Notes under the pieces: model-generated | What the model was told of the DNA's origin: nothing | Seen by the model: only the letters and a program-made list of their open reading frames with translations | Database searches by the model: none | NCBI GenBank assembly: GCA_041577335.1 | Contig: JBFGJH010000002.1 | Coordinates: forward strand, 16,389 to 80,388 | Length of the DNA stretch: 64,000 bases | Direction of reading: 5' to 3' | Origin: Acidimicrobiia bacterium | GTDB taxonomy: Bacteria > Actinomycetota > Acidimicrobiia > Spongiisociales > JAENVV01 | Shown here: positions 1 to 26,341 of the stretch, piece after piece | Layout: each line of letters begins with the position of its first letter | How positions within the stretch are numbered: the stretch's first letter is position 1 | Translations under genes and position numbers: made by a program

Positions 1-97
1 GCCAGAGTGATCGCCAACCCGACAGGCCAGACAAGCTTCATCAAGTCAGTATCCTTACCCCGGCGTTCGTGCCCTGAACTCTACCGATCATTGGCTG

Positions 98-1929: not shown

Positions 1930-1936
1930 AGGGGCT

Positions 1937-2749: not shown

Positions 2750-2750
2750 G

Positions 2751-3857: not shown

Positions 3858-3863
3858 CCCCTC

Positions 3864-7858: not shown

Positions 7859-8754
7859 TGGAGGTCGTAGCCGAGGAGGGCAGCAAGGTGCTCGTTGTGT
7901 TGTCGGAAGACGTCGGCCAGATGCTCACGAATGCCCGTGTCCACGGCGAGGCTGTCGGCGCGCCCCGCTCTCCCATAGCTGTGATTGGCAAACTCGGGTG
8001 GGTGCCAGTCCTCGATTCCCAAGAACGATTCGATCGCCGAAAGGGCGTGCCGAGGGTCGGAGGTGAGGTCCTCGAACCGAACCACCATCATCTGGTCTTG
8101 GGGGTACCAGGCTTGCCACCGGATGAGCTGTTCGGCGTATTTGCCTCGCTCGACATAAGAGTACCGTCGCAGCGGCCGGGCGTGATACGTCGGGTCGTCG
8201 GCGATGCGCTCCATTTCTCGGGCAAGGCGCTCGTCCTCGCGCTGCAACGCCTCCTCGAGAGTCAGCGGTTCTTGGCCGAGGCGCCGATTGTGTCCGTATT
8301 GGGAAATCGCACGGTCGATGGGATTGCGAATGAGGGTGATGATCTTCGCTTCTGGGATCAGGTGGGCGGCCCGCTGCGCCGCCAGGGGATGCAAGAGGTA
8401 ATCGGGGGTCGCCTCGAACGCCAAGGTGGGTTGCGCGCGTCGCCTTGAACGGACAGTTCGGCTTGCGCTGAGTGGGAAATGTGCCCGGTACCAATCCTCG
8501 CCCTCGAGGAACCTCGTCGAGAAATACTCCACCTCCTTACGAAGCGATGGATACACCTGCGGATGTGCTCCGAGATATTTGTACAGCGAACTCGTCCCGG
8601 ACCGTTGGGCGCCGACGATGAGCAGGTCGGGGAGGCTGCGCGCCCGAGAAGTCAACTGGCGTGTGCGAACGCGGGTCTCGGCGAGCTGGCGGCGCCGTTT
8701 GGTCGGAGTCTTCTCCTTGATCCATCCAGCGATCGCTGGAGTCACCGCAGGCAC
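7831..8754 (-). CDS. Sulfotransferase family protein
   Basis: LLIVGAQRSGTSSLYKYL is the PAPS P-loop and ITLIRNPIDRAISQYGH is the 3'-PB motif. Confidence 0.8.
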   Translation of the reverse strand: MPAVTPAIAGWIKEKTPTKRRRQLAETRVRTRQLTSRARSLPDLLIVGAQRSGTSSLYKYLGAHPQVYPSLRKEVEYFSTRFLEGEDWYRAHFPLSASRTVRSRRRAQPTLAFEATPDYLLHPLAAQRAAHLIPEAKIITLIRNPIDRAISQYGHNRRLGQEPLTLEEALQREDERLAREMERIADDPTYHARPLRRYSYVERGKYAEQLIRWQAWYPQDQMMVVRFEDLTSDPRHALSAIESFLGIEDWHPPEFANHSYGRAGRADSLAVDTGIREHLADVFRQHNEHLAALLGYDLQWLDSGGSA

Positions 8755-8757
8755 GGC

Positions 8758-11303: not shown

Positions 11304-13055
11304 TTGATCCCCGTTGCGGCGCCCCAACAATCGATGAGGTCGCTCCCCATGTCCCTTCCCATCAATCCCCGGCTGGTAGTCGCAATCGCACTCACGTTAG
11401 GTGCTTTTGCGCTCGCTTTTGGTGGCATCCAGGCAAACGCCGCCACGGTCGTCCAGATCTCCGGCGAGGTTTCCTACCCGCAGTCGACCACCGTCACATC
11501 AGACGAGGTGCTTCGCTTCGATCCCGCCCAAGACACGACGCTGGAGGTGAGCGGGAACCTCGTCATCGAGGGGACGCTCGAGATGAAACCCAATAAGGGC
11601 GTGACGCACACGCTCCGGTTCCTCGCGGTCAATGAGGCCGGCATGGTCGGCGGCGGGATGCAGGTGCTCGAATCCGATCGCGGGCTCTGGGTCGTGGGAA
11701 GCGGACAGCTCGACCTGCACGGCGAAGAAACAGTGGGTTGGAATCGCACCGGGACGGATTCCACGTGGAGCTCGAGCGACGACCTGAGGATCGCCCCCTA
11801 CCTCGCAGGTGATTACGCGTCCGGAGGATTCGACTCCTTTGCGCTCGGTTCGCCCGTGCCGGTCGCCGATCCCACACTTCCCCCAACAGAGGTCATGAAT
11901 CTGACCCGGTCGGTCAACATCGAAGGTACGCCGGGGGGACGATCCCATGTGATCGTCATGAGCTCCCAGCCGCAAGAGGTTCGCTACGCCACGTTCCGGT
12001 ACATGGGACCACGCCAGGACTCCGAGGGCGTGATGGGCAGGTATCCGATCCATTTCCACATGAACGGTGACAGCTCCCGAGGATCGATCGTCGAAGGAAA
12101 TGTGGTCCGTGAGTCAGGAAATCGCGGCATCGTCGTTCACGCGTCGCATGGCGTGATCGCACGGGGCAACGTGATCTATGACGTAGTCGACGACCCATTC
12201 TGGTGGGACCTCGGTGAGGAGAACGCCTCCCACGACGTGGTATTGGAGGGCAACCTCGCAGGTCTGGTCAAGAACGACCCCAAGAAACAGGGCTACACCC
12301 TGTCGGCATTCCACCTCGGTCGCGGTGAAGGCAACGTTGCCAACGGGAACGTTGCAGTGGGCGTCCAAGGCAACAAGAACTGCTCTGGCTTCAACTGGCC
12401 GAGTCAAGGGAGCGGCCTGTGGGAGTTCCAGGACAACGTTGCCCACAACAACAAGTGTCACGGCATCTTCGTGTGGCAGAACAGCTCCGCCAACCACCTC
12501 ATCGAGGATTTCATCGCCTACCGCAACGGGTCTACCGGCGTGAATCACGGGGCTTACACCAATGACTATGTCTACGAGAACCTCTACTTGTTCGAAAACC
12601 TGGAATACGGCGTGGTCAGCCACGCGTTCTCGCACCCGCCGCGTTCAGGGCAGCTCCAGCAAACCTGGTCGTGCGTCACAGTCGTCGGCTCGCCAGTCGG
12701 CCTGTCGGTTTCGGTTTCCAACGCCCCCGAGTTCGGGCATCCGGCGTTGTTCGACCATTTCACGGTGATCGATACGCCGGTGGCCACGCATGTCGAGCAA
12801 AACGCACTCGAAAACGGCCAGACGCTCGAAACAAGGGTGACGTTGGTGAACTTCAATGTTCCATGTGTCGGATCGCCGGTCCCTGATCCTGACGAGCCTG
12901 ATCCTGACGAGCCTGATCCTGACGAGCCTGATCCTGATCAGCCTGATCCTGATCAGCCTGATCCTGACGAGCCTGATCCTGACGATCGGCCGGAGCGGCC
13001 CGACCGGCCGCAACGTCCGCCCCGTGGTCCACGGTGGATATCGGGTACTCCGTAA
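11304..13055 (+). CDS. Secreted right-handed parallel beta-helix protein with C-terminal (PDPDEP)n tail (putative glycan hydrolase/lyase)
   Basis: It has a signal peptide (VVAIALTLGAFALAFGGIQANA) and repeated beta-helix rungs (NVVRESGNRGIVVHASHGV, NVAHNNKCHGIFVWQNSS). It is a paralogue of the next gene. The start could instead be the ATG at 11334 or 11349. Confidence 0.65.
   Translation: MIPVAAPQQSMRSLPMSLPINPRLVVAIALTLGAFALAFGGIQANAATVVQISGEVSYPQSTTVTSDEVLRFDPAQDTTLEVSGNLVIEGTLEMKPNKGVTHTLRFLAVNEAGMVGGGMQVLESDRGLWVVGSGQLDLHGEETVGWNRTGTDSTWSSSDDLRIAPYLAGDYASGGFDSFALGSPVPVADPTLPPTEVMNLTRSVNIEGTPGGRSHVIVMSSQPQEVRYATFRYMGPRQDSEGVMGRYPIHFHMNGDSSRGSIVEGNVVRESGNRGIVVHASHGVIARGNVIYDVVDDPFWWDLGEENASHDVVLEGNLAGLVKNDPKKQGYTLSAFHLGRGEGNVANGNVAVGVQGNKNCSGFNWPSQGSGLWEFQDNVAHNNKCHGIFVWQNSSANHLIEDFIAYRNGSTGVNHGAYTNDYVYENLYLFENLEYGVVSHAFSHPPRSGQLQQTWSCVTVVGSPVGLSVSVSNAPEFGHPALFDHFTVIDTPVATHVEQNALENGQTLETRVTLVNFNVPCVGSPVPDPDEPDPDEPDPDEPDPDQPDPDQPDPDEPDPDDRPERPDRPQRPPRGPRWISGTP
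12883..12990 (+). repeat. 18-bp tandem repeat (cctgatcctgacgagcct x6, minor variants) encoding PDPDEP/PDPDQP
   Basis: The repeat is directly visible in the sequence. It is in frame within the CDS 11304..13055. Confidence 0.9.
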
Positions 13056-13250
13056 TCGAAATCTCCCGGCCTGCCTGAACTCTCGCCGACTTGTTGCACG
13101 TTTAACTAAAGCGGGGAGCCTGGTTAACCGATGCTGCATGAGGGTTCAGGCGGGCTGAGGGGCAACACACATCTCCCAAGATGGGAGTGTCGCCCGCACA
13201 GGAACAGCCCACCCGGGCAAACCCAGAAAACCACGAGAGGTCGTTCTCCC

Positions 13251-15362
13251 ATGTCGTACGCCGCGAGGTTCCCCAGACTCGCTGTCAGCGTCGTATTCGT
13301 ATTGCTGGCGGCGCTCATCGCCATAGTCGGTTGGTCGCGGTCCGCCGACGCCGCGGCTGTCACAGAGGTGTCCGGTGATGTGTCCTACTCGGCCAGTACG
13401 ACAATCGCCGCCGGAGAAGTGCTGAAGTTCGATCCAGCCAAGGACACAACCCTCGAGGTCAGCGGCAACCTGGTCATCGCCGGGACCCTCGAGATGAAAC
13501 CCAACAACGGAGTCACTCACACCCTTCGATTTCTCGGCGTCGATGAGTCGAGCTTCATCGGTGGCGGCGTCGAGGTACTCGAATCTGACCGGGGACTGTG
13601 GGTGACCGGAGCGGGCAAACTCGACTTGCAGGGCGAAGAAAAGACAGGCTGGAACCGGACCGGAACCGATGCCACCTGGAAGTCGAGCGACGAACTGAAG
13701 ATCGCTCCCTATCAGATGGGTGACTATGCGGTAGATGGCTTCGACTCCTTCAGCCTGGGGTCATCGGTTCCAAAGGCCGACCCGTCTCTGCCCGCCACAG
13801 AGGTCATCAACCTCACTCGCTCAGTCAATATCGAGGGGACAAGCGGAGGAAGGTCGCACGTGACCATCATGAGCTCGGTCCCCCAAGAGGTGCGATACGT
13901 CGCGTTTCGTCACATGGGGCCCCGCCAGCCCGACGGTGACGGCGATACCGAGGGCGTGATGGGCCGCTATCCGCTGCATTTCCACACGACGGGAGACGGG
14001 TCGCGAGGGTCCGTCGTCGAAGGAAACGTCGTTCGCGACTCGGGCCACCGCGGCATTGTCGTCCACCTCTCCAACGGTGTGACTGTCTCCGACAACGTCA
14101 TCTACGACGTCTACGACGACGTGTTCTGGTGGGATCTCGGAGAAGAGAACGCCAGCGACGATGTCGTGTTCGAGGACAACTTCGTGGGTCTGGTGAGGAC
14201 CGACCCCGTGAACCAAGGTTTCACGCTCAGCGGATTCCATCTCGGTCGCGGTGAAGGCAACGTTGCCAACGGCAACGTGGTTGTGGCCGTCCTAGGCAAC
14301 AAGAACTGTTCCGGGTTTCAGTGGCCGAGCCAGGGCAGTGGGCTCTGGGAGTTCCAGGACAACGTTGCCCACAACAACAAGTGTCACGGCATCTTCGTGT
14401 GGCAGAACAGCTCCGCCAACCACCTCATCGAGGATTTCATCGCCTACCGGAACGGCACCGCGGGCGTGAGTCACGGCGCCTACACCAACGACTACGTCTA
14501 CGAAGACGTCTATCTCTTCGAGAACGAAGAGATGGGCATCATCAGTCACGCGTTCTCACACCCACCGCGGACGGGCCAGATGCAGCAGACGTGGTCATGC
14601 GTCACGGTGGTTGGCTCCCCAGTCGGCCTGACAGTGGCAGTTTCGAATGCCCCCGAGGTCGGGGATCCGGCCATCTTCAATTACTTCAAGACGGAGGACA
14701 CCCCCGTCCTCTACGAGGTCCAAGAAGCCGCCCTGGACAAGGGACAAACCATCGACGCGCGGGCAACCTTCAACAACCTGAACGTGGACTGCCCCGCCGG
14801 TGGCTTCAGCGGAACGGTCGTCGGCGAGGGCATCTTTGTCGACGATGACGCTTCGCCGCACGAAGCCAACATCGAGCTCATCGCCGAGGCCGGGATAACC
14901 GTGGGTTGCAATCCTCCCGACAACGATATGTTTTGCCCTGGTGACCCGGTGACGCGGGCGCAGATGGCGACGTTCCTCGCCCGTGCATTGGCTCTGCCGG
15001 CTCCATCGAACGACTACTTCAGAGATGATGATGCCTCGACCCATGAAGGCGGGATAAACGCCCTTGCGGCGGCCGGGATCAGCAGCGGATGCAACGAGGC
15101 AAACACCAACTACTGCCCCGGTGACCATGTGACGAGAGCGCAGATGGCCAGCTTCCTCGCACGAGCGCTGAACCTTCCCGCCGATTCTGCGAACTGGTTC
15201 GTCGATGACGACAAGTCGTCGCACGAAGCGAACATCAACGCGTTGGCGTCCGCCGAGATCACCTCGGGATGCAAGCCGGCTGATCGCCTGTTTTGCCCGG
15301 CCGACTCGGTAACCCGAGCCCAGATGGCGACGTTCCTGGTGAAGGCACTGAATCTCAACTAA
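13251..15362 (+). CDS. Secreted parallel beta-helix protein with three C-terminal SLH domains
   Basis: It has a signal peptide (VVFVLLAALIAIVGWSRSADA) and a beta-helix core about 80% identical to the upstream paralogue. Three C-terminal repeats of about 55 aa (F.DDD.S.HE..I..LA.AGI..GC....FCP...VTRAQMA.FL..AL.L) match the S-layer-homology domain pattern. Confidence 0.7.
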   Translation: MSYAARFPRLAVSVVFVLLAALIAIVGWSRSADAAAVTEVSGDVSYSASTTIAAGEVLKFDPAKDTTLEVSGNLVIAGTLEMKPNNGVTHTLRFLGVDESSFIGGGVEVLESDRGLWVTGAGKLDLQGEEKTGWNRTGTDATWKSSDELKIAPYQMGDYAVDGFDSFSLGSSVPKADPSLPATEVINLTRSVNIEGTSGGRSHVTIMSSVPQEVRYVAFRHMGPRQPDGDGDTEGVMGRYPLHFHTTGDGSRGSVVEGNVVRDSGHRGIVVHLSNGVTVSDNVIYDVYDDVFWWDLGEENASDDVVFEDNFVGLVRTDPVNQGFTLSGFHLGRGEGNVANGNVVVAVLGNKNCSGFQWPSQGSGLWEFQDNVAHNNKCHGIFVWQNSSANHLIEDFIAYRNGTAGVSHGAYTNDYVYEDVYLFENEEMGIISHAFSHPPRTGQMQQTWSCVTVVGSPVGLTVAVSNAPEVGDPAIFNYFKTEDTPVLYEVQEAALDKGQTIDARATFNNLNVDCPAGGFSGTVVGEGIFVDDDASPHEANIELIAEAGITVGCNPPDNDMFCPGDPVTRAQMATFLARALALPAPSNDYFRDDDASTHEGGINALAAAGISSGCNEANTNYCPGDHVTRAQMASFLARALNLPADSANWFVDDDKSSHEANINALASAEITSGCKPADRLFCPADSVTRAQMATFLVKALNLN

Positions 15363-15410
15363 CCAAAACTCGCCCTATGGGTTGGCCTTGTCGCCGCTTA
15401 TGCTGGCGTC

Positions 15411-16847
15411 GTGGTGATCGACGACAAGGAAGCAGCGAAGCCGGGGTTGGCAGCGTTCGTTCCGAGCCAAACCGCCCCGCCGCGTCTGCCGTGGGGCCTC
15501 TGGGCCATCCTGGCTGTGCTCTTCATGGCCTTGGTCGGTTCGTTTGCCTTCGGCGCTACCGAAGCAGGAACGTTCGCGCTTCTCATCCTCCTGGCGTTTC
15601 CGATTGCACTCATGGCCAAGAACGCCGCCAGCCCACTCGATTCGCAATGGATACCGAATTGGATCATGGCGGGTTGGGCGGCCAAGCTGGCAGCTTCGAT
15701 CGGCCGTTATTGGGCGCTCGAGGTTTTGTACAACGGTGTCGGTGATGCCACCGGGTATCACAATTTCGGAACTCGCTACGCCGACATGTGGCGAGCGTTG
15801 GAAGTCCCGCCCTTCGGGACCGGAACCGAATTCATCCAATGGGCCACCGGCGTGCTCTACATTCCGTACACGCCGACCAAGCTCGGCGGGTTCGTGCTGT
15901 TCGCCACGATTGCCTTCGTCGGACAGATCTTGCTCTATCTGGCGTTTCGGCGAGCCCGGCCCCATGCAAGGCTCAAATGGTACGCCGGACTGATCTTCTT
16001 CTTCCCGAACATCGTCTACTGGCCTTCCAGCATCGGCAAAGAGTCGCTGATGATCTTCTTCATCGGCATCGCCGCCTACGGAGCCGTGAGGATGTTTGCC
16101 GAGTACCAGGCGATGTGGATGGCTGTGGTGGCCATCGGGCTGGTGGGCACCGGCGTGATTCGATCGCATATTGCCCTACTCATCATCGGGTCGCTGACGG
16201 TGGCAGTTGTCTTTGGAAGGGGCCCAGAGAACGCCCCCGCCCGAATGCGGCGCCTCATCTCGGCGGTCGTTGCCGTGATCTTGTTGGTTGGCGTGGGAGC
16301 GTGGGCAATCCAAGACTTTGGCATCGATCTCAGTAGCGGTGTCAGTGACGAACTTCTCACCGAGGAGCTCGACCCGATCTTCGCAGGCGTCGAAGAGCAG
16401 ACCGACAAGGGCGGCTCGGCCGTCGAGGGCAGCGCCATCCGCTCGCCGCTCGATGTTCCCGAAGCCGTGCTGCGGGTTGTGTTTCAGCCACTTCCGTGGG
16501 ATGCCCACAACACTCAGGCGCTGGTGAACAGCTTTGTCGAGGGCATGTTCCTGCTGTTGCTGTTCATATGGAGGCTTCCCGCCATAGCGCGGGGCTTCTT
16601 CCGGAAGGCGCGAGACCCGTATGTGATGTTTTCGCTCGTGTATACGGCAGGGTTCATCTTTGGGCACAGCGCGGTCCTGAATCTCGGCATCATGGCTCGG
16701 CAACGGTCTCAGCTCATTCCGTTCGTGCTGGTGATCCTCGTTGCGATGGGAATGAACGACTCGGGGAAAGACGTTGCCGAGCTCGAAGACACGTCGGCCA
16801 AATCGCCATTACCACCCAAGACACTTGTGGTCGTAGAATCGCCCTAG
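15411..16847 (+). CDS. Polytopic integral membrane protein, putative glycan polymerase/ligase or GT-C-like
   Basis: It has ten or more predicted TM segments, a large central loop (DLSSGVSDELLTEELDPIFAGVEEQTDKGG) and sits within the glycan locus. I recognise no specific family motif. Confidence 0.35.
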   Translation: MVIDDKEAAKPGLAAFVPSQTAPPRLPWGLWAILAVLFMALVGSFAFGATEAGTFALLILLAFPIALMAKNAASPLDSQWIPNWIMAGWAAKLAASIGRYWALEVLYNGVGDATGYHNFGTRYADMWRALEVPPFGTGTEFIQWATGVLYIPYTPTKLGGFVLFATIAFVGQILLYLAFRRARPHARLKWYAGLIFFFPNIVYWPSSIGKESLMIFFIGIAAYGAVRMFAEYQAMWMAVVAIGLVGTGVIRSHIALLIIGSLTVAVVFGRGPENAPARMRRLISAVVAVILLVGVGAWAIQDFGIDLSSGVSDELLTEELDPIFAGVEEQTDKGGSAVEGSAIRSPLDVPEAVLRVVFQPLPWDAHNTQALVNSFVEGMFLLLLFIWRLPAIARGFFRKARDPYVMFSLVYTAGFIFGHSAVLNLGIMARQRSQLIPFVLVILVAMGMNDSGKDVAELEDTSAKSPLPPKTLVVVESP

Positions 16848-17033
16848 TGCTCGGAGATACCGAGCACCGAATCGAGCGACGCAGCACTGGTATTCGTGTG
16901 AATCCGTTGCTACGCTCGGTGGCAAGGGATTGGGACTGTGAACAGATCGGGGTCGCTCCGCTGGCTATCGACAACGCCACCTGAGCGGGCATCTTCTGGT
17001 CCCACTCACGACACGTAAAGAGGGGTTATTGAC

Positions 17034-18284
17034 GTGAGAACACAGGTTGCCATTGTTGGGGGTGGTCCGGGAGGCGCGGCGAGCGCGCTTTTCCTGGGGG
17101 AGCACGGCATCGACTCGATCATCATCGAAGCTGAGTCGTTTCCGCGGTTTCATATCGGCGAATCGATGACTGGTTGGGTCGCCGAGAAGATACGCGGATG
17201 GGGCCTCGAATCCGCCATGAAAGAGAACCGTTTTCCGATCAAACGAGCCGGCACCGTCTACGGGTCGTCGGGTTCGAACCGGTACGACGTGCCCATCACC
17301 GCACGGGTGGCCGGCACCGAGCGCCGACAGGTGGAGACGTGGCAGGTTCGCCGGTCCGTGTTCGACAAGATGCTCTTGGACGTTGCTGTCGAGCGGGGCG
17401 CCCGGCTGGTACACGGGAAAGCCATCGAACCGATCTTCGACGACGAGGGCGCTGTCTCGGGAGTCACCGTGCAGCTGGCGTCGGGCGATACCACCACGAT
17501 CGAGGCCGACGGCATCATCGACGCATCCGGACGCAAGACCTGGATGTCGAGCCTCGGCTTCGCAGGCAAGAAGGAACGCGGCGGTTACGAGAGCCAGATC
17601 GCTGTCTTCAGCCATGTGAAGGGGGGGATCCGCAACGGTGAGATGGAGGAGGGAAACACGCTGCTGTTCTACCGAGAGGTCGATCACTGGTCGTGGTTCA
17701 TTCCCGTCGACGACGAGACCGTGTCCATTGGAATCGTCACTCCTGCGTCCTATTACAAGTCGATGAAGGAATCCAAAGAAGAGTTCTTTGCTCGCGAATG
17801 TCGCGAGCTGAATCCCAACCTGGCCGAACGCCTGGCAGATGTCGAATTGGTGGAACCGGTGACGGCCACCGCCAACTTCTCCTACAAGATTCCCGAATTC
17901 ACGGGCAAGGGCTGGATGTGCGTCGGTGATGCCCACCGATTCATCGACCCGTTCTTTTCGTTTGGCATCCACCTTGCATTGTCGGAAGCTGAGAAGGCAG
18001 CCGAATACATGGCGTCCTATCTCGGCGGTGAGTTGGACGGCGCCGACCCGTTCGCTGAGTATGCAGCTATATGCGAGCGAGGGATGGATACCGTGCAAAC
18101 GCTGATGGACTCCTTCTGGGCCAATCCGCTCGGCTGGGGCTACATGCTCCACTACACGGATCACGGGGGCGACGTGCTCGACATGTTCGGCGGCCGCATC
18201 TACGAGGAGGAGCCGCTTCCGGCGTTGCTTTCGATGCGTGAGATGGTGGCCCGCTCGGACAGAGGACTCGTTCCCGTTTCGTAG
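17034..18284 (+). CDS. Flavin-dependent halogenase-like FAD monooxygenase
   Basis: It has the FAD motif IVGGGPGGAASA, a WxWxIP motif (HWSWFIPV) and an FxxPxxSxG motif (FIDPFFSFG), which together diagnose flavin-dependent halogenases. The start codon is GTG, preceded by the RBS agagggg. Confidence 0.65.
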   Translation: MRTQVAIVGGGPGGAASALFLGEHGIDSIIIEAESFPRFHIGESMTGWVAEKIRGWGLESAMKENRFPIKRAGTVYGSSGSNRYDVPITARVAGTERRQVETWQVRRSVFDKMLLDVAVERGARLVHGKAIEPIFDDEGAVSGVTVQLASGDTTTIEADGIIDASGRKTWMSSLGFAGKKERGGYESQIAVFSHVKGGIRNGEMEEGNTLLFYREVDHWSWFIPVDDETVSIGIVTPASYYKSMKESKEEFFARECRELNPNLAERLADVELVEPVTATANFSYKIPEFTGKGWMCVGDAHRFIDPFFSFGIHLALSEAEKAAEYMASYLGGELDGADPFAEYAAICERGMDTVQTLMDSFWANPLGWGYMLHYTDHGGDVLDMFGGRIYEEEPLPALLSMREMVARSDRGLVPVS

Positions 18285-18296
18285 CGGTCGCACGCC

Positions 18297-19445
18297 ATGG
18301 ATTTCTCAATAACCCAAGAGCAACAGGCGTTCCGCGAGTCGATCTTGGGGTTCGGGCGCGACTACCTCGACTATGACATGGTCGACCATGACGACCAGCA
18401 CCGGTTCAACAGTGATGCCTGGAAGAGGTGTGCCGAGTTCGGCATTCAGGGCTTGTGCGTACCCGAGGAATACGGTGGCCAGGAGGCCGATCCGATCACG
18501 ATCATCCTGGCGATGGAGGCGCTCGGCTACGCCTGCCGCGACAACGGTCTGCTGTTCTCCCTGAACGCTCAGATGTGGTCGGCGGAGATACCGATCATCC
18601 GGTTCGGCAATGAAGAACAGAAACAGAGGTACCTGCCCGGCCTCGTCGATGGCAGCATCGTGGGTGTGCAAGGTATGTCCGAGCCGGATGCTGGGTCCGA
18701 TGCGTTCGGAAGCATGGCGACCTCCGCAGTGGTCGACGGCGATGACTACGTCATCAACGGCTCGAAGACGTGGATCACCAATGCGCCGATCGCCAACATG
18801 TTCGTTCTGTTCGCGGTGACCGACGCATCGAAAGGCTCGTTTGGGTTGTCTGCTTTCTTGATCGATCGGGATACGCCTGGGCTCACCGTAGGCGCTCCTT
18901 TCAAGAAGATGGGGCTTCGCACCTCACCGATGAGCGAGCTGGTGTTCTCCGATTGCCGGGTACCGGCGACCAGCCTGTTGGGAAAACCCGGCTCGGGCAT
19001 GGCGATCTTCAACCATTCGATGGATTGGGAACGGGGCGTGATCCTCGCCAGTTCAGTCGGAACCATGCAACGCCAGCTCGAAACGTCGGTCGCCTATGCC
19101 AAAGAGCGGAAACAGTTCGGTCAGGCCATCGGCAAGTTCCAAGCTGTATCGCACCGTCTCGTCGACATGAAGGTGCGGCTCGAGGCTGCCCGCCTGCTCC
19201 TGTACCACCTCGGGTGGTCGATGACCCAGCGCACGTCCAACAACATGGAATCGGCGATGGTCAAGCTCTTCTTGTCGGAGGCTTTCGTGCAATCGAGCCT
19301 CGACACGATTCAGACGCACGGCGGGATGGGATACATGGCCGAAGCGGGTATCGAGCGCGAGCTCAGAGACGCGATCGCCGGCCGGATCTACTCCGGGACG
19401 TCCGATATCCAGAAGAACCTGATCGCCCGTCATATGGGCCTGTGA
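18297..19445 (+). CDS. Acyl-CoA dehydrogenase family protein
   Basis: It has the ACAD fold signatures GMSEPDAGSD, TKTWITNA and YSGTSDIQKN. Its stop overlaps the start of the next gene (TGATG). Confidence 0.85.
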   Translation: MDFSITQEQQAFRESILGFGRDYLDYDMVDHDDQHRFNSDAWKRCAEFGIQGLCVPEEYGGQEADPITIILAMEALGYACRDNGLLFSLNAQMWSAEIPIIRFGNEEQKQRYLPGLVDGSIVGVQGMSEPDAGSDAFGSMATSAVVDGDDYVINGSKTWITNAPIANMFVLFAVTDASKGSFGLSAFLIDRDTPGLTVGAPFKKMGLRTSPMSELVFSDCRVPATSLLGKPGSGMAIFNHSMDWERGVILASSVGTMQRQLETSVAYAKERKQFGQAIGKFQAVSHRLVDMKVRLEAARLLLYHLGWSMTQRTSNNMESAMVKLFLSEAFVQSSLDTIQTHGGMGYMAEAGIERELRDAIAGRIYSGTSDIQKNLIARHMGL

Positions 19446-21019
19446 TGGCTCATCTCCTACATGGTCTTCTGGAAGCCTCCTGTGAGAGTGATCCGACCCG
19501 CGTAGCCGTCGTGGACGGGGAGCGGCGCTACACCTACGAAGAGCTGGACGGCGACGCCAACCGCGTCGCCCATCTGCTGATCGAGGCGGGCGTTCGACCC
19601 GGTGATCGAGTCGGCCTGTATCTCGACAAGTCCCTGGAAGCGGTGGTAGCCATCTATGGGATCCTCAAGGCGGGCGCTGTCTACGTTCCCCTGGACTCGC
19701 GGGCTCCGGCGATTCGCTTGAGCTACATCGTGCGCGACTGCGGTATCCGCCATCTCGTCACCATGTCCAAGCTGGAGAATGGCTGGTCGGATATGGCCGC
19801 AGAAGGGGTTCCGCTCGAGACCATCGTGGTGATGGACGGCGCCGGAGAGCTGACTCCCATCGACGGGATGACCTTCCGTGACGGTGCCGTCCTTGGTGGC
19901 TATTCCCCAGATCGGCCCGGGGTTCGAAGAATCGACGAGGACCTCGCCTACATCCTCTACACGTCCGGGTCGACTGGCGCTCCCAAGGGAGTGATGCTGT
20001 CGCATCGCAACGCCCTCGCTTTTGTGGAATGGGCGAGAGACGAGGTGGGCCTCACGGCCGACGACCGGCTTTCCAGTCACGCACCCTTCCACTTCGACCT
20101 TTCGACCTTTGACCTGTTCTCTGCGGCGGCGGCCGGCGCGTCGGTCACCCTCGTCCCTCGGGCAACATCGGTCTTCCCGATCGAGGTTGCCCGCTTCATC
20201 GACCGCCACGAGATCACGGTGTGGTATTCGGTGCCGTCGATCCTCTCGCTGCTCACACAGCACGGCAACCTCGCCGAGGGAGCGCTGCCCTCGCTTCGCA
20301 CCGTGATCTTCGCCGGCGAAGTGTTCCCATCGAAATACCTTTCATCGCTCATGGCACAGCTCCCGGACGTGGAGTTTCACAACTGGTACGGCCCGACCGA
20401 GACAAACGTGTGCACTGCCTTCCGGGTGTCCGAGCCGCCGGCTCCCGACGGCGGGGACATTCCCATAGGCAAGGCCATCGCAAACGTTGAGACGTTCGTG
20501 GTTGGCGAGGACGGCACCCTGGTTCCGCCAGGAGAGCGGGGCGAGCTGTATGTGCGGGGCGCCACCGTCATGCACGGTTACTGGGGAGATCCAGAGAAGA
20601 CAGCCGCCCGCCTGGTGGCCCACCCACGCGGAGCCGGCACCACCGATCTGGCATATGCGACGGGCGATCTCGTGTCAGAACTGCCGTCTGGCGACTACAA
20701 GTTTCTGGGACGCAAGGACCATCAGATCAAGAGTCGCGGCTACCGGATCGAACTGGGAGAGATCGAGACGGCGCTGAACGCTCATCCCGGCGTCAAAGAG
20801 GCCGTGGTGGTTGCCATCCCCGACGACGTCGTGTCGAACCGTATCCGCGCCTACGTGGTGGTCAGCGGGGACGAGACCAAAAACGAGCTGGTGGCTTGGT
20901 GTGGGGAACGGGTTCCCAAATACATGATCCCTGAATCCTTCGATTTCGAGGATGTGCTCCCCAAGACCTCAACCGGCAAGATCGACCGCCAAGCTCTCCA
21001 GACAGCCGCCACCTCGTAG
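19445..21019 (+). CDS. Stand-alone adenylation enzyme (AMP-binding, amino-acid-activating type)
   Basis: The core A-domain motifs are present: A3 LAYILYTSGSTGAPKG, A4 FDLS, A5 NWYGPTETN, A7 YATGDL, A8 GRKDHQIKSRGYRIELGEIE and A10 PKTSTGKIDR. No PCP or condensation domain follows. The upstream N-terminal part of the 749-aa six-frame ORF is an overlap artefact. Confidence 0.85.
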   Translation: MAHLLHGLLEASCESDPTRVAVVDGERRYTYEELDGDANRVAHLLIEAGVRPGDRVGLYLDKSLEAVVAIYGILKAGAVYVPLDSRAPAIRLSYIVRDCGIRHLVTMSKLENGWSDMAAEGVPLETIVVMDGAGELTPIDGMTFRDGAVLGGYSPDRPGVRRIDEDLAYILYTSGSTGAPKGVMLSHRNALAFVEWARDEVGLTADDRLSSHAPFHFDLSTFDLFSAAAAGASVTLVPRATSVFPIEVARFIDRHEITVWYSVPSILSLLTQHGNLAEGALPSLRTVIFAGEVFPSKYLSSLMAQLPDVEFHNWYGPTETNVCTAFRVSEPPAPDGGDIPIGKAIANVETFVVGEDGTLVPPGERGELYVRGATVMHGYWGDPEKTAARLVAHPRGAGTTDLAYATGDLVSELPSGDYKFLGRKDHQIKSRGYRIELGEIETALNAHPGVKEAVVVAIPDDVVSNRIRAYVVVSGDETKNELVAWCGERVPKYMIPESFDFEDVLPKTSTGKIDRQALQTAATS

Positions 21020-21176
21020 CCTCGCCTTCTCCGCCCCTTCCGTCCTCGGCTTTTCGCCGAGTCCAGCTCCGCAACCCTCTGTCAAGGCCTCGGTGGAGGA
21101 GAAGATTGGGTCGTTTCACCCTGCCGCATGCAGAGCCGAACTGCGAACTTCGGCGAGAGTTCCTGTTCTCCAACGT

Positions 21177-21262
21177 CTTGAAGCCTCTGGCTTCAAGAAG
21201 CGACGATGCGCTCTGGGCTCCAACTTCTTGAAGCCTCTGGCTTCAAGAAGCGACGATGCGCT
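21177..21262. repeat. Tandem 36-bp direct repeat (period 50 bp), each copy containing a 9-bp-stem hairpin (tcttgaagcc-tctg-ggcttcaaga); the second copy spans the stop codon of the CapD-like gene
   Basis: Copies at 21177-21212 and 21227-21262 are identical. Each contains an internal palindrome. They lie between convergent genes, so a bidirectional terminator is likely. Confidence 0.7.
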
Positions 21263-23231
21263 TCGTGCCGTCGGCGACGACGAGCGGCTCCGGCTGCCAG
21301 TCGCGCGAGCTGACTGCGAGGAGGCGTTCCCGCAGGCCGTCCTGGTCGCCTTCGGCGGCCATGCGGATCAAGGCGTTGACGGTATTCATCAGGGCGACCG
21401 AACCGGGCCAACCCTGATCGGCGATGCTGATCCTGGGATGAACGCTGGGGCGGAGTGGCACCGTTGCGAGGATCTCATGGAGTTTCTCGCCGGGGCGCTT
21501 GCCCGTGAAGCGCACCTCGATGTCGCGGACGGGCACCAGTCCCGCCATCCGAATGAGACGATGTGCCAGGTCGACGATCCGCACGGGCTCACCCATGTCG
21601 AGCACGAGCACTTCACCGCCCTTGGCTGTGGCGGAGCCCTGCAGCACCAGTTCTACCGCTTCGGCGATCGTCATGAAGTATCGGGTCATCTCGGGATCGG
21701 TGACCGTGACCGGTCCGCCTCTCTTGATCTGATTGACGAACGTCGGCACTACCGAGCCGCGGCTGCCGAGCACATTGCCGAACCTCACGGCCGAGTAGAC
21801 GCATTCGGGATGGTCGACGGCGGCTGACTGGACCAGCATCTCGGCGACTCTCTTCGAGGCGCCCATGACGCCGATGGGGTCACACGCCTTGTCGGTGGAG
21901 ATGAGGACGAACCGGTCGACGCCCGATCGTTGGCACCCTTCCAAGAGATACTCGGTGCCGAGCACGTTGGTCTTCACGGCCTCCTCGGGATAACTCTCCA
22001 GGATGGGCACGTGCTTGTGGGCGGCGGCGTGGAACACGACCTCAGGCTTGTGTTCATCGAAGACGCGCAGCACCCTGCGACGATCGCGGATATCACAGAG
22101 AATCGCCTGCACCTCGACACCGGAGCCGCCCCACATGGACAGCGCTTCGTGGAGGTGGGTTTCGTCGTTGTCCAAGACATACAGAGTCGAGGGTTTGAAC
22201 CGGATGATCTGGCGGACGAGCTCGGAACCGATCGAACCGCCGGCACCGGTAACGAGCACACGACGACCTTCGAGGCTCTCCGACACCAGACCGAGGTCGG
22301 TTTGCACCGGTGCTCGCTCCAGGAGGTCTTCTGGTTCCAAGTCTCTGACGTCCTGGATGTTGGTGTCATCCTGCATGATCGACTCGATGTCGGGCAGAAT
22401 CCGGAGGCGAACATCGACCATGAGGCACATGTCGACGAGCCGGCGGACGATATGAGACCCGTCGTTCGAAGCAACGATGATTTCGTCGACGTCATAGGCG
22501 TCAACCAACTTGGGAATCGATTCCAGGGAGCCAAGCACTTCGAGCCCGGCGAGCCGGCGATTCGTCTTGATGGGCTCGGCCGTCACAAACCCGACCACCT
22601 GGATGCGCTCACCGCTGGTGGTGAGGTGGCGCGCCAGGTTGGCAGCCGCGCGTCCTTGACCTACGACGAGCACACGCCGCATTGCTCCCGGCGTATGGCT
22701 CGCCTTGTTGAACGAGAACAATCGGGTGCGGAAGCGCACGGCTCCGGTGAGCATCACCGTGAGTAATGCGCCGAGTGCGAGTGAGCCAATTGGCACCGGC
22801 CCGCTCATCGAGAATATGGAACGCGCCAGAATCATGGTCGTGAGGAGGACCGCTCCTGCCATCATCGACGCGAGGATGATGCGGATGGCTTCGGCGATGC
22901 TGGCGTGTTCCCACACGTGACCATAGGTGCCGAATGCGATGTTCGAGATGATGTGTACCGCCACGATGATCGGCAGTACCCACAGAAAATCTCGCCACCA
23001 GCGGGGCGGCACGCCGGAGGTCTGGTCGACGAATCTCAGAATGAGAGCTGCCGAATAGGCGGCGGCGACGAGGAGTGCATCCACGACCGCGAAAGAAACA
23101 TCGGTGCGCACCGATGCCAATGTCTGCGCTATCAAGCGGGATCTATCGACCCCAGCCCGCTCCCGTGTCGTAAACGACAAAATCCACCCCTTAGTGAATG
23201 GCTCAAGATGAGCCAGGCCCCAACCTACCAC
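21243..23231 (-). CDS. Membrane-anchored UDP-sugar 4,6-dehydratase/epimerase (CapD/WbpM/PglF family)
   Basis: It has N-terminal TM helices and the Rossmann motif VLVTGAGGSIGSEL. The length and layout are typical of polysaccharide biosynthesis protein CapD. Confidence 0.85.
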   Translation of the reverse strand: MVGWGLAHLEPFTKGWILSFTTRERAGVDRSRLIAQTLASVRTDVSFAVVDALLVAAAYSAALILRFVDQTSGVPPRWWRDFLWVLPIIVAVHIISNIAFGTYGHVWEHASIAEAIRIILASMMAGAVLLTTMILARSIFSMSGPVPIGSLALGALLTVMLTGAVRFRTRLFSFNKASHTPGAMRRVLVVGQGRAAANLARHLTTSGERIQVVGFVTAEPIKTNRRLAGLEVLGSLESIPKLVDAYDVDEIIVASNDGSHIVRRLVDMCLMVDVRLRILPDIESIMQDDTNIQDVRDLEPEDLLERAPVQTDLGLVSESLEGRRVLVTGAGGSIGSELVRQIIRFKPSTLYVLDNDETHLHEALSMWGGSGVEVQAILCDIRDRRRVLRVFDEHKPEVVFHAAAHKHVPILESYPEEAVKTNVLGTEYLLEGCQRSGVDRFVLISTDKACDPIGVMGASKRVAEMLVQSAAVDHPECVYSAVRFGNVLGSRGSVVPTFVNQIKRGGPVTVTDPEMTRYFMTIAEAVELVLQGSATAKGGEVLVLDMGEPVRIVDLAHRLIRMAGLVPVRDIEVRFTGKRPGEKLHEILATVPLRPSVHPRISIADQGWPGSVALMNTVNALIRMAAEGDQDGLRERLLAVSSRDWQPEPLVVADGTKRIVAS

Positions 23232-23501: not shown

Positions 23502-24584
23502 ATGGTGCTCGTGACGAGCGGTCAGCGACGCGGCGCCGAGGTGTTTGGGGAGCGCCTCGCGGTCGGTCTGCCCGATCACGGTTGGGACGTTGATTTTATT
23601 GCGCTGGCCGCAGGTCCGGAAGAGGTCGCTGCTTCGGTGGCGGCAGTTCCGCTGAGCGCGGTGGCCCCCGGCCATCTTCGTCGCCTCGACCTCACGATCG
23701 TCAGGGCGCTTCGCGGCCGTCTCAGAAGCCACGGCACCGAGGTGCTTCTCGCCAATGGGTCCTCGACGCTTCATTACGGCGTGGCTGCTGCCCGAACGAT
23801 GGGTCGACGACCGGCGATCGCGTACGGCAGCATCGGTGAGCCGACGTACTGGGCTCGGTCTCCTCGCCAGCGGGCCTCCTACCAGCTCTTTCTGCGCTTG
23901 GTCGATCGAGTGTTTTCTGTATCTGAGCAAACCGGTCGGCAACTGGTCGACCATTTCGGCGTGAGCCCCGAGAAACTCCGTGTGCTCCATACCGGGGTAC
24001 CGCAATCCCTTCTCGATGTCTCGCCACTTCCTCGTGGGGGCGAATTGCATCTGCTGTTCATGGGAAGCCTCTCGGCCGAAAAGGACCCGCTCGCCGCGAT
24101 CGAGATTCTGCGCCAAGTGCGCGACACGATGCCGGCTCGCCTACGGCTCGTAGGCATTGGGCCTCTGGCCGCCGACATTTCGGCGGCTGCTACTGCCGTC
24201 GGCATGGATGGCGCAGTGGAGATGGTGGGATCTGTCGACGATGTCGAACCGCATCTGGCCTGGGCTGACGTCCTGCTCCTCACGTCCAAAACCGAAGGTC
24301 TCCCGGCCGCCCCTCTCGAGGCGGCGGCCGCTTCGGTCCCGGTGGTTGCATACGACGTGGGTGGAGTCGCCGAGACGCTCGTCGATGGCTCAACGGGCCG
24401 CCTCGTACCTGCGGGTGACGTCGTCGCGGCCGCCAAGGCCGTCGTCGAGTTGGCCGAGGATGAGCAAGCACGTCAGGCCGCCGGGCAAGCTGCCCGGTCG
24501 TTCATTCTCAATGGTTTCACCGTCCAAGACGCTGTTCGGCGGTACGACACGGCGTTGCGTGAGCTCCTGCGGAGTGGACGATGA
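23502..24584 (+). CDS. Glycosyltransferase family 4
   Basis: It has a GT-B C-terminal domain with LLLTSKTEGLPAAPLEAAAASVPVV (E-x7-E). I chose the start at MVLVTSG. The ORF track extends to 23433. Confidence 0.75.
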   Translation: MVLVTSGQRRGAEVFGERLAVGLPDHGWDVDFIALAAGPEEVAASVAAVPLSAVAPGHLRRLDLTIVRALRGRLRSHGTEVLLANGSSTLHYGVAAARTMGRRPAIAYGSIGEPTYWARSPRQRASYQLFLRLVDRVFSVSEQTGRQLVDHFGVSPEKLRVLHTGVPQSLLDVSPLPRGGELHLLFMGSLSAEKDPLAAIEILRQVRDTMPARLRLVGIGPLAADISAAATAVGMDGAVEMVGSVDDVEPHLAWADVLLLTSKTEGLPAAPLEAAAASVPVVAYDVGGVAETLVDGSTGRLVPAGDVVAAAKAVVELAEDEQARQAAGQAARSFILNGFTVQDAVRRYDTALRELLRSGR

Positions 24585-26341
24585 AGGTCGCTCACCTGAC
24601 GACGGTCGACCTCAGCCTCCGGTATCTGGTGTTCGCCCAGCTGAAGTCGATTCGCCAGATCGGCGGTGAGTCGATCGGTATCAGTGCGCCCGGGCCGTGG
24701 GTCGAAGAGATCGAAGCGGCCGGTATCACCCATATTGCGCTGCCGGCTTCGACGCGAGGAATCGCCCCGTTCGCCGATGTCAAAGCTGCCTGGCAACTCT
24801 GGAAGATCCTTCGAGCCGACCCGCCCGATATTCTCCACACCCATAACCCCAAGCCAGGTCTCTACGGGCGGATACTGGGTCGGCTCGCCGGCGTGCCCGT
24901 CGTGATCAACACCGTTCATGGCCTCTACGCGGCTCCCGATGATCCGCTGATCAAGAAGGCCATCGTTTACGTTCTCGAGGCCATCGCCGCTCGCTTCTCT
25001 GATCGGGAGCTCGTACAGAGCCGCGAGGACCTGGCGCTCATGGAACGGCTGCACATGGTCCGTCGTGGTCAGGGACAACTGCTCGGCAACGGCGTGGACC
25101 TGGTCAAGTTCGATCCCGACCGCACCGATCTGCCTGGTCGGGCCGAGATGCGCGCTCAGCTGGCTGTGTCGGACGACCAGATCGTTGTGGGGATGGTTGG
25201 TCGTCTGGTGGCTGAGAAGGGGTACCCCGAGCTGTTCGAGGCGGCAGCGGTGTTGCCCGACCGTTATGTGGTGGTGGCGATTGGGCCAGACGATCCTGAC
25301 AAACCCGACGCGCTGCCCCGCGAGGTGGTCGAATCAGCGGAACGGGCCGGGGTCCGGTTCTTGGGAATGCGCACGGACGTGGATGCCCTCTACCGGGCGT
25401 TGGACATCTTCGTGCTGCCGTCGCACCGTGAGGGTTTCCCCCGTGCCGCAATGGAGGCCGCCGCAATGGGGCTGCCGGTGATCGCGACGGACATTCGCGG
25501 CTGCCGTGAGGTGGTCGACGACGGTATCAATGGGGTCTTGATCCCCGTCAGGTCCCCCAACGCGCTGAAGGCCGCCATCGAGCGGATCGGGTCGGACGCT
25601 GAAGCCCGACAACGGATGGGGTCGGCCAGCTGGCGGAAAGCGCAGCTGGCGTTTGACGAACAGATCGTGGTCCATCGGGTTCTCGAGGCTTACCGCACGG
25701 TCACTGCCGAGAAGGGACTGACCGCAATGGGCGAGGCGCTCGGCAGCGGGTCCGGTGTCGCCGAGCTGCGGCCGGCGGTCGCAGCAGATGCTGCAGCGCT
25801 GGCACGGATGCACATCGAAGGCATTGGCACGGGGTTCCTTCCCCGGCTGGGGCCCCGATTCATGCGGCTTTTGTATGAAGCGTTGATTGGCTATGGCGAG
25901 GCCGTGGTGTTGGTCGCCGACAGCGGCGGGGGGGCGATTGGGTTTGTGGCCGGGGTTGCCGATACGGGTGCCTTCTACAAGCACTTTGTTCGCAGGTACG
26001 GCGTCGGCGCAGGCGTACGGGCCTTGCCCGCAGCCATGCGGCCGAGCAACCTTCGGCGGGGATGGGAAACCGCCCGGTACGGTGGCGGAGACGACGGTGT
26101 GAGAGCCGAGCTCCTCTCGATGGCCGTGGATACTGCCTGGCGGGGAAAGGGCATCGCGCTTCGTCTGGGCCGCGCCTTCCTCGCAGAGATGGCAGCCCGG
26201 GACGTTGACTCGGTGAAAGTGGTGGTTGGCATGCGCAACGAGATTGCCCAACGCGCCTACCAGCGGATGGGATTCGTGGAAGCGGGAACCGAAGAGGTGC
26301 ATCCCGGGGAGACATCGATGGTCCTGGTGTGGTCGGCATAG
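24581..26341 (+). CDS. Glycosyltransferase family 4 fused to C-terminal GNAT N-acetyltransferase domain
   Basis: The GT4 part reads FVLPSHREGFPRAAMEAAAMGLPVIATD. A C-terminal domain of about 170 aa carries GNAT motifs (ELLSMAVDTAWRGKGIALRL ... AYQRMGF). Confidence 0.75.
   Translation: MKVAHLTTVDLSLRYLVFAQLKSIRQIGGESIGISAPGPWVEEIEAAGITHIALPASTRGIAPFADVKAAWQLWKILRADPPDILHTHNPKPGLYGRILGRLAGVPVVINTVHGLYAAPDDPLIKKAIVYVLEAIAARFSDRELVQSREDLALMERLHMVRRGQGQLLGNGVDLVKFDPDRTDLPGRAEMRAQLAVSDDQIVVGMVGRLVAEKGYPELFEAAAVLPDRYVVVAIGPDDPDKPDALPREVVESAERAGVRFLGMRTDVDALYRALDIFVLPSHREGFPRAAMEAAAMGLPVIATDIRGCREVVDDGINGVLIPVRSPNALKAAIERIGSDAEARQRMGSASWRKAQLAFDEQIVVHRVLEAYRTVTAEKGLTAMGEALGSGSGVAELRPAVAADAAALARMHIEGIGTGFLPRLGPRFMRLLYEALIGYGEAVVLVADSGGGAIGFVAGVADTGAFYKHFVRRYGVGAGVRALPAAMRPSNLRRGWETARYGGGDDGVRAELLSMAVDTAWRGKGIALRLGRAFLAEMAARDVDSVKVVVGMRNEIAQRAYQRMGFVEAGTEEVHPGETSMVLVWSA

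Follow-up and report, generated by a model that had tools for sequence, protein, structure and literature searches.

The DNA considered here, a 64,000-nucleotide stretch of contig JBFGJH010000002.1 from an uncultured marine Acidimicrobiia bacterium (GCA_041577335.1), has a G+C content of about 62% and is referred to as the window. Within a cell-surface polysaccharide locus, it carries three adjacent genes, here called the trio. They encode a flavin-dependent halogenase (Hal1), an enzyme of the acyl-CoA dehydrogenase (ACAD) fold that probably acts on a prolyl-S-carrier protein, and a stand-alone adenylation (A) enzyme, probably an L-Pro:carrier-protein ligase. A carrier protein and a second halogenase lie beyond the left edge of the window, in the same locus.

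The halogenase, the dehydrogenase and the adenylation enzyme

All three genes are intact and lie on the + strand, exactly where an earlier note on this DNA had placed them: Hal1 (416 aa) at 17034-18284, the dehydrogenase (382 aa) at 18297-19445, and the A enzyme (524 aa) at 19445-21019. Hal1 starts with GTG, preceded by an AGAGGGG box. The trio resembles one operon, because Hal1 and the dehydrogenase gene are separated by 12 bases and the stop codon of the latter overlaps the ATG of the A-enzyme gene (TGATG, 19443-19447). The order Hal-ACAD-A corresponds to the bmp2-bmp3-bmp4 numbering. Copies that are 99-100% identical are found on short contigs of three NCBI metagenome-assembled genomes (MAGs) and one Sequence Read Archive (SRA) run. 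Between MAGs the trio is 99.9-100% identical, and the Hal1 protein is the same in all three and in the run, SRR25158358. The 186-bp gap 5′ of Hal1 (16848-17033) contains neither an open reading frame nor a carrier-protein gene, for which the earlier note had judged it too short, and a promoter scan found no consensus promoter in it; a promoter and terminator consensus scan of the regions flanking the trio also returned nothing. In the related contig L042, the gene for the membrane protein that precedes this gap runs directly into the dehydrogenase gene, so Hal1 and the gap look like a lineage-specific insertion or loss.

Hal1 matches the Pfam families FAD_binding_3 and Trp_halogenase, both above cut-offs. 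Its best match among PDB entries is Bmp2 (5bva, 246 bits), aligned across residues 4-410, and further matches include Mpy16 (5buk), the halogenase 8zop, ChlB4, PltA (5dbj), CndH, and CmlS. NCBIfam also lists QhpG and geranylgeranyl reductase models, all far below cut-offs. The GxGxxG signature of the FAD fold is present as VGGGPGG (residues 8-14). Both halogenase motifs reported in the earlier note are found: WxWxIP, which serves as a block on monooxygenation, occurs as HWSWFIP, and FxxPxxSxG as FIDPFFSFG. The glutamate of the tryptophan halogenases PrnA and RebH is the residue that precedes the Ser of the latter motif. Hal1 has Phe at this position; since Bmp2 (PIFSYG) and Mpy16 (PIFSSG) have Phe there as well, the glutamate is unfit as a criterion for the pyrrolyl-carrier subclass. 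Hal1 K70 (FPIKRAG) aligns with the Lys of Bmp2 (FPDKPG), Mpy16 (FPKKFG), and 8zop (FQRKYG), the catalytic one in this class, which lies about 26-30 residues past the GES/GEA loop. Thus, of the Lys/Glu pair by which the earlier note would have told a halogenase from a plain monooxygenase, the Lys is present and the Glu is replaced as in Bmp2 and Mpy16. PMC5577590 deals with the catalytic Lys in general terms. In Bmp2, mutation of Y302, F306, and A345 alters the number of halogens added (PMC5577590); the corresponding residues of Hal1 are F, L, and V. Taken together, motifs and matches argue strongly that Hal1 is a flavin-dependent halogenase of the Bmp2/Mpy16/PltA class, which acts on pyrrolyl-S-carrier proteins.

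The dehydrogenase contains the three ACAD Pfam domains. It scores 460.6 bits against the NCBIfam PigA model (cut-off 500) and 415.1 bits against the RedW model (cut-off 650), reaching neither cut-off, and by these scores is a predicted member of the prolyl-carrier dehydrogenase family but the equivalog of neither PigA nor RedW. Its PDB matches AnaB (4irn, 429.5 bits), a PigA-type enzyme (5zw0, 335 bits), and 6cxt_B (319 bits) all outrank ordinary butyryl-CoA dehydrogenases. The last is deposited under the name 'Butyryl-CoA dehydrogenase'; we take 6cxt to be Bmp3 (chain B) in complex with the acyl carrier protein (ACP) domain of Bmp1 (6cxt_A).

The A enzyme consists of the AMP-binding and AMP-binding_C domains and has no fused carrier, C, or T domain. 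It passes TIGR01733 with 417 bits, and its best single-domain PDB match is PltF (6o6e_B, 330.7 bits). Asp235 and Lys517 in PheA numbering are kept (D218 and K512 of the enzyme itself), which points to activation of an α-amino acid. The specificity code, read off the core motifs FDxS, NxYGPTE, and GKxDR (A4, A5, and A10) with PheA numbering, is DLFYIAWVCK. The codes DLFY[IV]AWVCK or DLFYLALVCK occur in all related glycan-type loci and in L008, a contrasting locus of the nonribosomal peptide synthetase (NRPS) type. DLFYLALVCK, found in the halogenase-linked L008 and in four glycan-type loci, is the code of proline enzymes of pyrrole pathways. A literature search with the code strings found nothing. 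The analogy with PltA, PltE, and PltF of pyoluteorin biosynthesis drawn in the earlier note is thus upheld by the matches to Bmp2, AnaB and PigA-type enzymes, and PltF, and so is its reading of the A enzyme as amino-acid-activating, based on the Asp of FDxS.

The carrier protein beyond the left edge

A PROSITE-type motif scan of the 64-kb window yielded no plausible carrier protein. None was found in its six frames by phmmer with two peptidyl carrier proteins (PCPs) or by an iterated hidden Markov model (HMM) of 67 family members, and Pfam detected no PP-binding domain on the large open reading frames. The lead came from relatives. On contig L007, whose halogenase is 66% identical to Hal1 (tblastn), an 81-aa PCP is encoded 9.5 kb upstream, and a search with this protein returned 67 relatives, several of which share a contig with halogenase homologues. 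An exact-match search with the first gene of the window led to contig L022, which overlaps window positions 1-6460 at 99.74% identity and reaches 4.3 kb further left. Exact look-up of the PCP P0134 recovered L024 (GCA_041614195.1), which overlaps L022 over 3956 nt (99.95%) and the window over positions 1-297 (100%).

L024 encodes an 83-aa PCP at 1051-1302, equivalent to about -6886 to -6635 in window numbering. The gene lies about 6.9 kb left of window position 1 and about 23.9 kb upstream of Hal1, within the same glycan locus. The protein has the Ser attachment-site motif IIDSLG, and its best PDB matches are PigG, the Bmp1 ACP domain (6cxt_A), and PltL. The same PCP is present in SRR25158358, the run that also has the identical Hal1. 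From left to right, L024 carries a p408-type gene (-), PCP, p221, p330, a GT4 glycosyltransferase gene, a sulfotransferase gene, Hal2, p143, and p408 (-). The window begins inside this arrangement: its positions 1-41 (-) are the 5′ end of p408, a secreted, membrane-anchored protein of 408 aa whose remainder is off-window. Positions 3-41 (-) translate to MKLVWPVGLAITL, the N-terminus of L024 6752-7978 (-) and the first 13 codons of p408, which joins the window to the carrier-protein module.

Between the sulfotransferase gene and p143 lies the second halogenase, Hal2 (406 aa), at L024 5067-6287 (about -2870 to -1650 in window numbering; L022 1416-2636). It is 49% identical to Hal1 and has the same motifs, and its orthologues P0018, P0019, and P0017 belong to a clade distinct from Hal1. 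Because L024 comes from the same population, the apparent lack of a carrier protein would mostly be an effect of the window edge, with one conflicting contig (L022, considered below) remaining. The statement in the earlier note that no carrier protein accompanies the trio therefore holds within the window but not beyond its left edge. Its central puzzle largely disappears once the DNA to the left is considered, where a PCP of the PigG/PltL type dedicated to the pathway is encoded together with a second halogenase.

The glycan locus and its relatives

The trio sits within a locus for a sulfated polysaccharide of the cell surface that spans about 40 kb and to which window positions 1-33000 belong; the remaining 31 kb of the window contain unrelated housekeeping genes. 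Pfam assignments on both sides of the trio agree with the earlier note in embedding it among polysaccharide genes. On the left, the first complete gene of the window encodes a sulfotransferase (104-976, +; Pfam Sulfotransfer_1/3), and the exact protein is also encoded on L022. A further sulfotransferase follows, together with an ABC-2 permease and an ABC ATPase that make up a Wzm/Wzt-like exporter (973-3863, -; Pfam; collinear with L021, L022, and L023). Next are two GT4 glycosyltransferases, a polysaccharide deacetylase, a sulfotransferase, and a 788-aa protein with a weakly Wzz-like N-terminus (3864-11124, -; Pfam and the gene calls of L022 and L023). Two paralogous CEMIP-type β-helix proteins (Pfam) are encoded at 11304-15362 (+; 11304-13055 and 13131-15362), and the 478-aa polytopic membrane protein at 15411-16847 (+). 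At the DNA level, the β-helix paralogues share about 75% identity. A long (PDPDE/Q)n repeat forms the end of the first, whereas the second closes with three SLH domains, a feature that seems uncommon among actinobacteria.

On the right of the trio, a PglF/CapD-like membrane-anchored UDP-HexNAc 4,6-dehydratase is encoded at 21243-23231 (-; Pfam Polysacc_synt_2, 356.7 bits). Its score against the NCBIfam PseB model is 193 bits, below the cut-off. The convergent A-enzyme and dehydratase genes are separated by a tandem 50-nt repeat (21163-21262; two copies, 94% identical, each with a 12-bp GC-rich hairpin) that overlaps the 3′ end of the dehydratase gene; it is unique within the window, where none is expected by chance. 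The segment 23433-30361 (Pfam; collinear with L005) encodes a GT4 glycosyltransferase, a GT4-GNAT fusion, an initiating transferase of the WecA/MraY family, a GNAT acetyltransferase, another GT4 glycosyltransferase, and an NAD-dependent epimerase. In the fusion (24581-26341), the GNAT acetyltransferase domain is C-terminal to the glycosyltransferase. A SulP sulfate permease with a STAS domain (31030-33006, +; Pfam Sulfate_transp, 297 bits) marks the right border of the locus. Further right, apparently unrelated to the trio, an ATP-grasp protein (45352-46911; IQCH-like ATP-grasp and PGM1 C-terminal domain) is followed by an SRPBCC/polyketide-cyclase-like protein (47018-47608).

The window contains at least four sulfotransferase genes (104-8757), and L024 has more. 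Together with the SulP/STAS permease at the border, these genes point to a heavily sulfated polymer. An ABC-2 permease with its ATPase, a WecA-family transferase, glycosyltransferases, and sulfotransferases are all present, as is typical of a sulfated polysaccharide exported by an ABC transporter. Condensation, ketosynthase (KS), and thioesterase domains, which would indicate NRPS or polyketide synthase (PKS) genes, were not found by Pfam in the window, L022, or L024.

Related contexts were collected by exact protein look-up and by a metagenome scan with a PCP alignment. At least nine diverged contig lineages of the Acidimicrobiia type keep the carrier protein, A enzyme, and dehydrogenase inside glycan loci. 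Linkage of pathway genes to glycan genes is seen in window/L024, L023, L021, L015, L007/L012, L005/L009, L038/L039, L042, L053/L059/L050, and L055/L058. Identity among them falls to 63% for Hal1 and about 61% for the dehydrogenase, and nearly all encode a β-helix homologue. The gene order of L022 and the window is shared by L023, at 74% nucleotide identity, and to the left of Hal2 this contig has a DegT aminotransferase gene, p143, two p330 paralogues, p408, PCP, p221, p330, and GT4 and sulfotransferase genes. L005/L006 are syntenic with window positions 7-30 kb, with DegT inserted between the genes for the membrane protein and Hal. In L009, from the same, more distantly related organism, the PCP lies at the opposite end of the locus, by sulfotransferases and an ABC-2 gene, and is accompanied by p221, p143, and p330 homologues. 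The L009 carrier module (12521-15504) also contains two α/β hydrolases, a second carrier protein of 84 aa, and a methyltransferase. L038/L039 combine ACAD-A-Hal, p408, PCP-p221-p143-p330, a β-helix protein, sulfotransferases, and ABC-2 genes within 20 kb. L042 has DegT, PCP, and sulfotransferase genes alongside its contiguous membrane-protein, ACAD, and A genes.

In two further lineages, PCP, A, and ACAD genes sit among β-helix and ABC genes, accompanied by PglF, GT4, and p408 in L053/L059/L050 and by p221/p330 in L055/L058. No halogenase was found within 10 kb in L053/L059 or L055/L058. The conserved unit of the clade is thus the PCP, A enzyme, and dehydrogenase inside a sulfated-glycan locus, whereas the halogenases are a variable addition, numbering two in the window lineage and none in some others. 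DegT adjoins the pathway genes in L005, L007/L012, L023, L040, and L042. Other settings contrast with these loci. The Chloroflexi contig L008 has the trio, a second halogenase, and a PCP among condensation-adenylation-thiolation-thioesterase (C-A-T-TE) genes. In L044, L074, and L079, ACAD-A-PCP form a compact operon accompanied by additional A domains.

Candidate transfer proteins and the proposed pathway

The proteins encoded beside the PCP include candidates for moving an acyl group from the carrier to a glycan. Relatives of p330 number 234, most of them unnamed proteins of Acidimicrobiia or Actinomycetota with few exceptions, and the family occurs in one to three copies per locus beside the carrier gene (L024 1968-2960; paralogues at L023 2396-4437). 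An alignment-based AlphaFold2 (AF2) model predicts an SGNH fold (pLDDT 87.2, pTM 0.85). Invariant residues include G70, C72, D73, R171, D184, N257, D304, and H307; of these, D304 and H307 lie in DFAH, a DxxH like that of block V, and C72 and D73 in the invariant GGCDLPS. By eye, p330 has no signal peptide. p221 shares the C-terminal part of p330, and neither p221 nor p408 matches any family or PDB entry. The size and position of p221 had suggested a phosphopantetheinyl transferase, but it has no ACPS match at E<=1 and its domain is the one common to p330. p408, the gene that most constantly adjoins the PCP, encodes a protein with a signal peptide and a C-terminal anchor, in which GxSxT and DxxH-like motifs can be seen by eye; it has no DltD match in Pfam, NCBIfam, or the PDB.

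The 478-aa membrane protein encoded next to the trio has no match in Pfam (E<=1), NCBIfam, or, by profile, PDB sequences. Its family comprises 2752 representatives, with invariant residues that include K210, R251, H253, N424, and R430. Among 34 members searched against Pfam, two gave a weak PMT_2 (GT-C) match and none an MBOAT or AT3 signature. A single-sequence AF2 model (pLDDT 44) was discarded, so a remote relationship to MBOAT proteins may have escaped these searches, as may a Wzy/GT-C-like fold. The gene is linked to ACAD-A in three lineages: in the window, in L042, where it is contiguous, and in L005, where it lies upstream of the trio. No recognised glycan acyltransferase (MBOAT, AT3, or LbH N-acyltransferase) was found beside the PCP.

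Gene content, synteny, and fold suggest that the trio supplies the central enzymes of a type II proline-to-halopyrrole pathway that decorates the sulfated surface glycan before its ABC export, a reading that we regard as evenly poised. In this pathway, the A enzyme would adenylate L-proline and load it onto the 83-aa PigG/PltL-type carrier protein, and the ACAD-fold enzyme would then convert prolyl-S-PCP to pyrrolyl-2-carboxyl-S-PCP, probably by a four-electron oxidation. Hal1 and Hal2 would halogenate the tethered pyrrole, with bromide or chloride as possible halides in a marine sediment organism. In place of thioesterase release or hand-over to an NRPS or PKS, p221 and p330 would pass the acyl group to a cytoplasmic sugar acceptor, which may be a nucleotide-activated amino sugar or a lipid-linked glycan. 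Most probably, the acceptor would be 4-amino-4,6-dideoxy-HexNAc, supplied jointly by the PglF-like dehydratase and an aminotransferase of the DegT type; alternatively, the acyl group would go to a hydroxyl on the glycan as it is being built. Given the sulfotransferases and the ABC-2 exporter, the glycan should be complete before it leaves the cytoplasm. Cytoplasmic transfer from pyrrolyl-S-PCP is therefore the simplest route, after which the exporter would carry the decorated, sulfated glycan out of the cell. A broader form, in which Acidimicrobiia of marine sediments have taken a carrier-protein pathway over from secondary metabolism, and a new Cys/His-bearing SGNH acyltransferase family places pyrrole-2-carboxyl groups, bearing one or several halogens in some lineages, on the sulfated polysaccharide, is put forward tentatively, with somewhat less than even confidence. 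The preference of the earlier note for glycan decoration over a classical natural product gains from the conservation of the genes in the glycan loci of diverged relatives and from the lack of NRPS or PKS genes, while the transfer to the glycan itself stays conjectural.

Several observations weigh against the proposed pathway. Literature searches, whose coverage was incomplete, found no glycan with a pyrrole-2-carboxyl group, and no product is known. The transferase role of p330 and p221 is suggested by fold and adjacency only, and in L042 and L053/L059 the 10 kb on either side of the PCP yielded neither gene. The nucleophile of p330 is ambiguous, with the invariant Cys72 as a possible candidate. 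DegT was not seen in the window or L024. Proline is only a probable substrate, judged by the family, partners, and specificity code of the A enzyme, and AnaB, the best match of the dehydrogenase, is a two-electron oxidase. Finally, where L024 has the PCP module, L022 joins a 5′-truncated sulfotransferase gene to a fragment of an M23 peptidase gene. On L022, the sulfotransferase gene left of Hal2 lacks its first ~78 codons (L022 1-700 versus L024 4102-4971, where L024 runs on into GT4-p330-p221-PCP). This junction may be an assembly artefact of the MAG, such as a chimeric contig end, or may reflect a strain that lacks the PCP module. The window begins to the right of the conflict and is therefore compatible with both arrangements.

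If the L022 arrangement were that of the window genome, the PCP module would have been deleted and the trio would be a carrier-less relic in a decaying or silent cassette. That a contig from the same population shows this junction where both L024 and L023 have GT4-p330-p221-PCP gives the idea some substance. We give it little credence, since the trio, Hal2, p143, and p408 are all intact, the trio is nearly invariant across MAGs, and chimeric ends typically look like this, with the junction 628 nt inside the end of a contig whose MAG is fragmented. The intact module is also supported by L024, L025, L026, and L029/L030. Still less probable, to the point of being hardly credible, is that no halopyrrole is formed at all, either because Hal1 is an ordinary monooxygenase or reductase or because the dehydrogenase, like AnaB, stops at pyrroline-5-carboxyl-S-PCP. 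The QhpG and reductase models listed for Hal1 and the rank of AnaB among the dehydrogenase matches could be read in this way. Both halogenase motifs, the aligned Lys, and the near full-length Bmp2 match speak for a halogenase, however, and the dehydrogenase attains 460 of the 500 bits needed for PigA. A pyrrolyl-carrier halogenase beside the dehydrogenase would have no purpose unless a pyrrole arises, which argues against an AnaB-type stop.

A more substantial alternative, although an unlikely one, is that the pathway makes a free halopyrrole or pyrrole-2-carboxylic acid, with p330 or p221 acting as SGNH thioesterases that free it from the PCP by hydrolysis, much as Bmp1-4 make tetrabromopyrrole, and the glycan setting being meaningless. 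In its favour are the closeness of Hal1 to Bmp2, the bmp-like order of the genes, and the failure to find a recognised glycan acyltransferase beside the PCP; moreover, the SGNH fold includes thioesterases such as E. coli TesA. Yet about 24 kb separate the two groups of pathway genes, which glycan genes flank and interrupt in many lineages, and such persistent interleaving is not expected of a hitch-hiking cassette. There is also no Bmp1-type thioesterase domain. Because L053/L059 and L055/L058 keep the PCP, A enzyme, and dehydrogenase without a halogenase within 10 kb, a halopyrrole cannot be the conserved product. Transfer to the glycan could instead take place outside the cytoplasm, as in the Dlt system, with the 478-aa membrane protein relaying the acyl group from the PCP to the secreted p408, which would attach it to the exported glycan. 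The DltA model matches the A enzyme with 288 bits, visual inspection shows a likeness between the PCP motif EEEIIDSLG and DltC (the NCBIfam DltC matches are weak), the membrane-protein gene is linked to ACAD-A, and p408 is an anchored, motif-bearing, and constant neighbour of the PCP. This arrangement seems distinctly unlikely, given the lack of an MBOAT or AT3 signature and the weak PMT_2 matches of the membrane-protein family, its unusable model, the failure of p408 to match any Pfam, NCBIfam, or PDB entry, and the simpler route offered by cytoplasmic SGNH proteins beside the PCP.

Among known systems, the enzymology of Bmp1-4, PltFLEA, PigIGA, and RedMOW is already established, and the trio is a further member of those families. 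Bmp1-Bmp4 of Pseudoalteromonas, whose roles lead to tetrabromopyrrole (PMC5577590) and which also serve pentabromopseudilin, comprise the same three enzyme families in the same order, and both systems are marine; Bmp2 is the best solved relative of Hal1, and the PCP matches the Bmp1 ACP domain. Unlike the bmp cluster, the locus described here has a free 83-aa carrier about 24 kb away rather than a Bmp1-type ACP-thioesterase fusion, two halogenases, F/L/V at the Bmp2 positions, no bmp5-10, and a polysaccharide setting. PltF/PltL/PltE/PltA (pyoluteorin), PigI/PigG/PigA, and RedM/RedO/RedW (prodiginines) follow the same type II scheme of a stand-alone A enzyme, a small PCP, and an ACAD-fold four-electron oxidase. 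The Plt system also has a halogenase that acts on the tethered pyrrole, PltF is the best single-domain match of the A enzyme, and PigG and PltL are among the best matches of the PCP. These systems pass the pyrrolyl unit to a PKS or KS, whereas no PKS, NRPS, or KS gene is found here.

For transfer of a pyrrolyl-S-PCP unit to a sugar, we know of no precedent other than the CloN/CouN-type systems. In clorobiocin biosynthesis, CloN1-N7 transfer a proline-derived pyrrolyl group from a PCP to a sugar hydroxyl (PMC11218499). The two-carrier module of L009 recalls the logic of CloN1-N7 and of CouN1-N7 (coumermycin). Their acceptor is a small aminocoumarin glycoside rather than a polymer, CloN2 and CloN7 are not SGNH proteins, and the window lineage has neither a second carrier protein nor the α/β hydrolases. 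DltABCD, which D-alanylates teichoic acids, also pairs a stand-alone A enzyme and a small carrier to serve a cell-surface polymer, as proposed here, with a secreted or anchored partner encoded beside the carrier gene. It differs in that no MBOAT protein (DltB) was detected here, the carrier-bound acyl group would undergo oxidation and halogenation, and the candidate transferases are cytoplasmic. SsfX3, the salicylyl transferase of the tetracycline SF2575, and the glycan O-acetyltransferases PatB and OatA share 9-15% sequence identity with p330, which has an extra N-terminal part and the invariant Cys-Asp pair.

New in this locus are the glycan setting without a thiotemplate downstream partner, the splitting of the pathway genes between two clusters some 24 kb from each other, the link to an undescribed SGNH family and a secreted partner, and the conservation of this arrangement across many uncultured Acidimicrobiia. 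It also illustrates that an apparently missing partner gene may sit just past the edge of a window. For researchers of halogenases and of glycans, the clade defines a conserved gene set of PCP, A enzyme, ACAD, zero to two halogenases, p221, p330, the PglF-like dehydratase, and DegT. Should the product turn out to be a free halopyrrole, the clade would still extend Bmp-type chemistry to uncultured Actinomycetota. If the proposed pathway is correct, neither a halogenated substituent nor an acyl group of the pyrrole type would have been seen before on a glycan from bacteria, and the decoration would represent a new class of glycan modification that ties thiotemplate natural-product enzymology to biogenesis of the cell envelope. 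Such glycans may also constitute an unrecognised sink for organohalogens in marine sediments.

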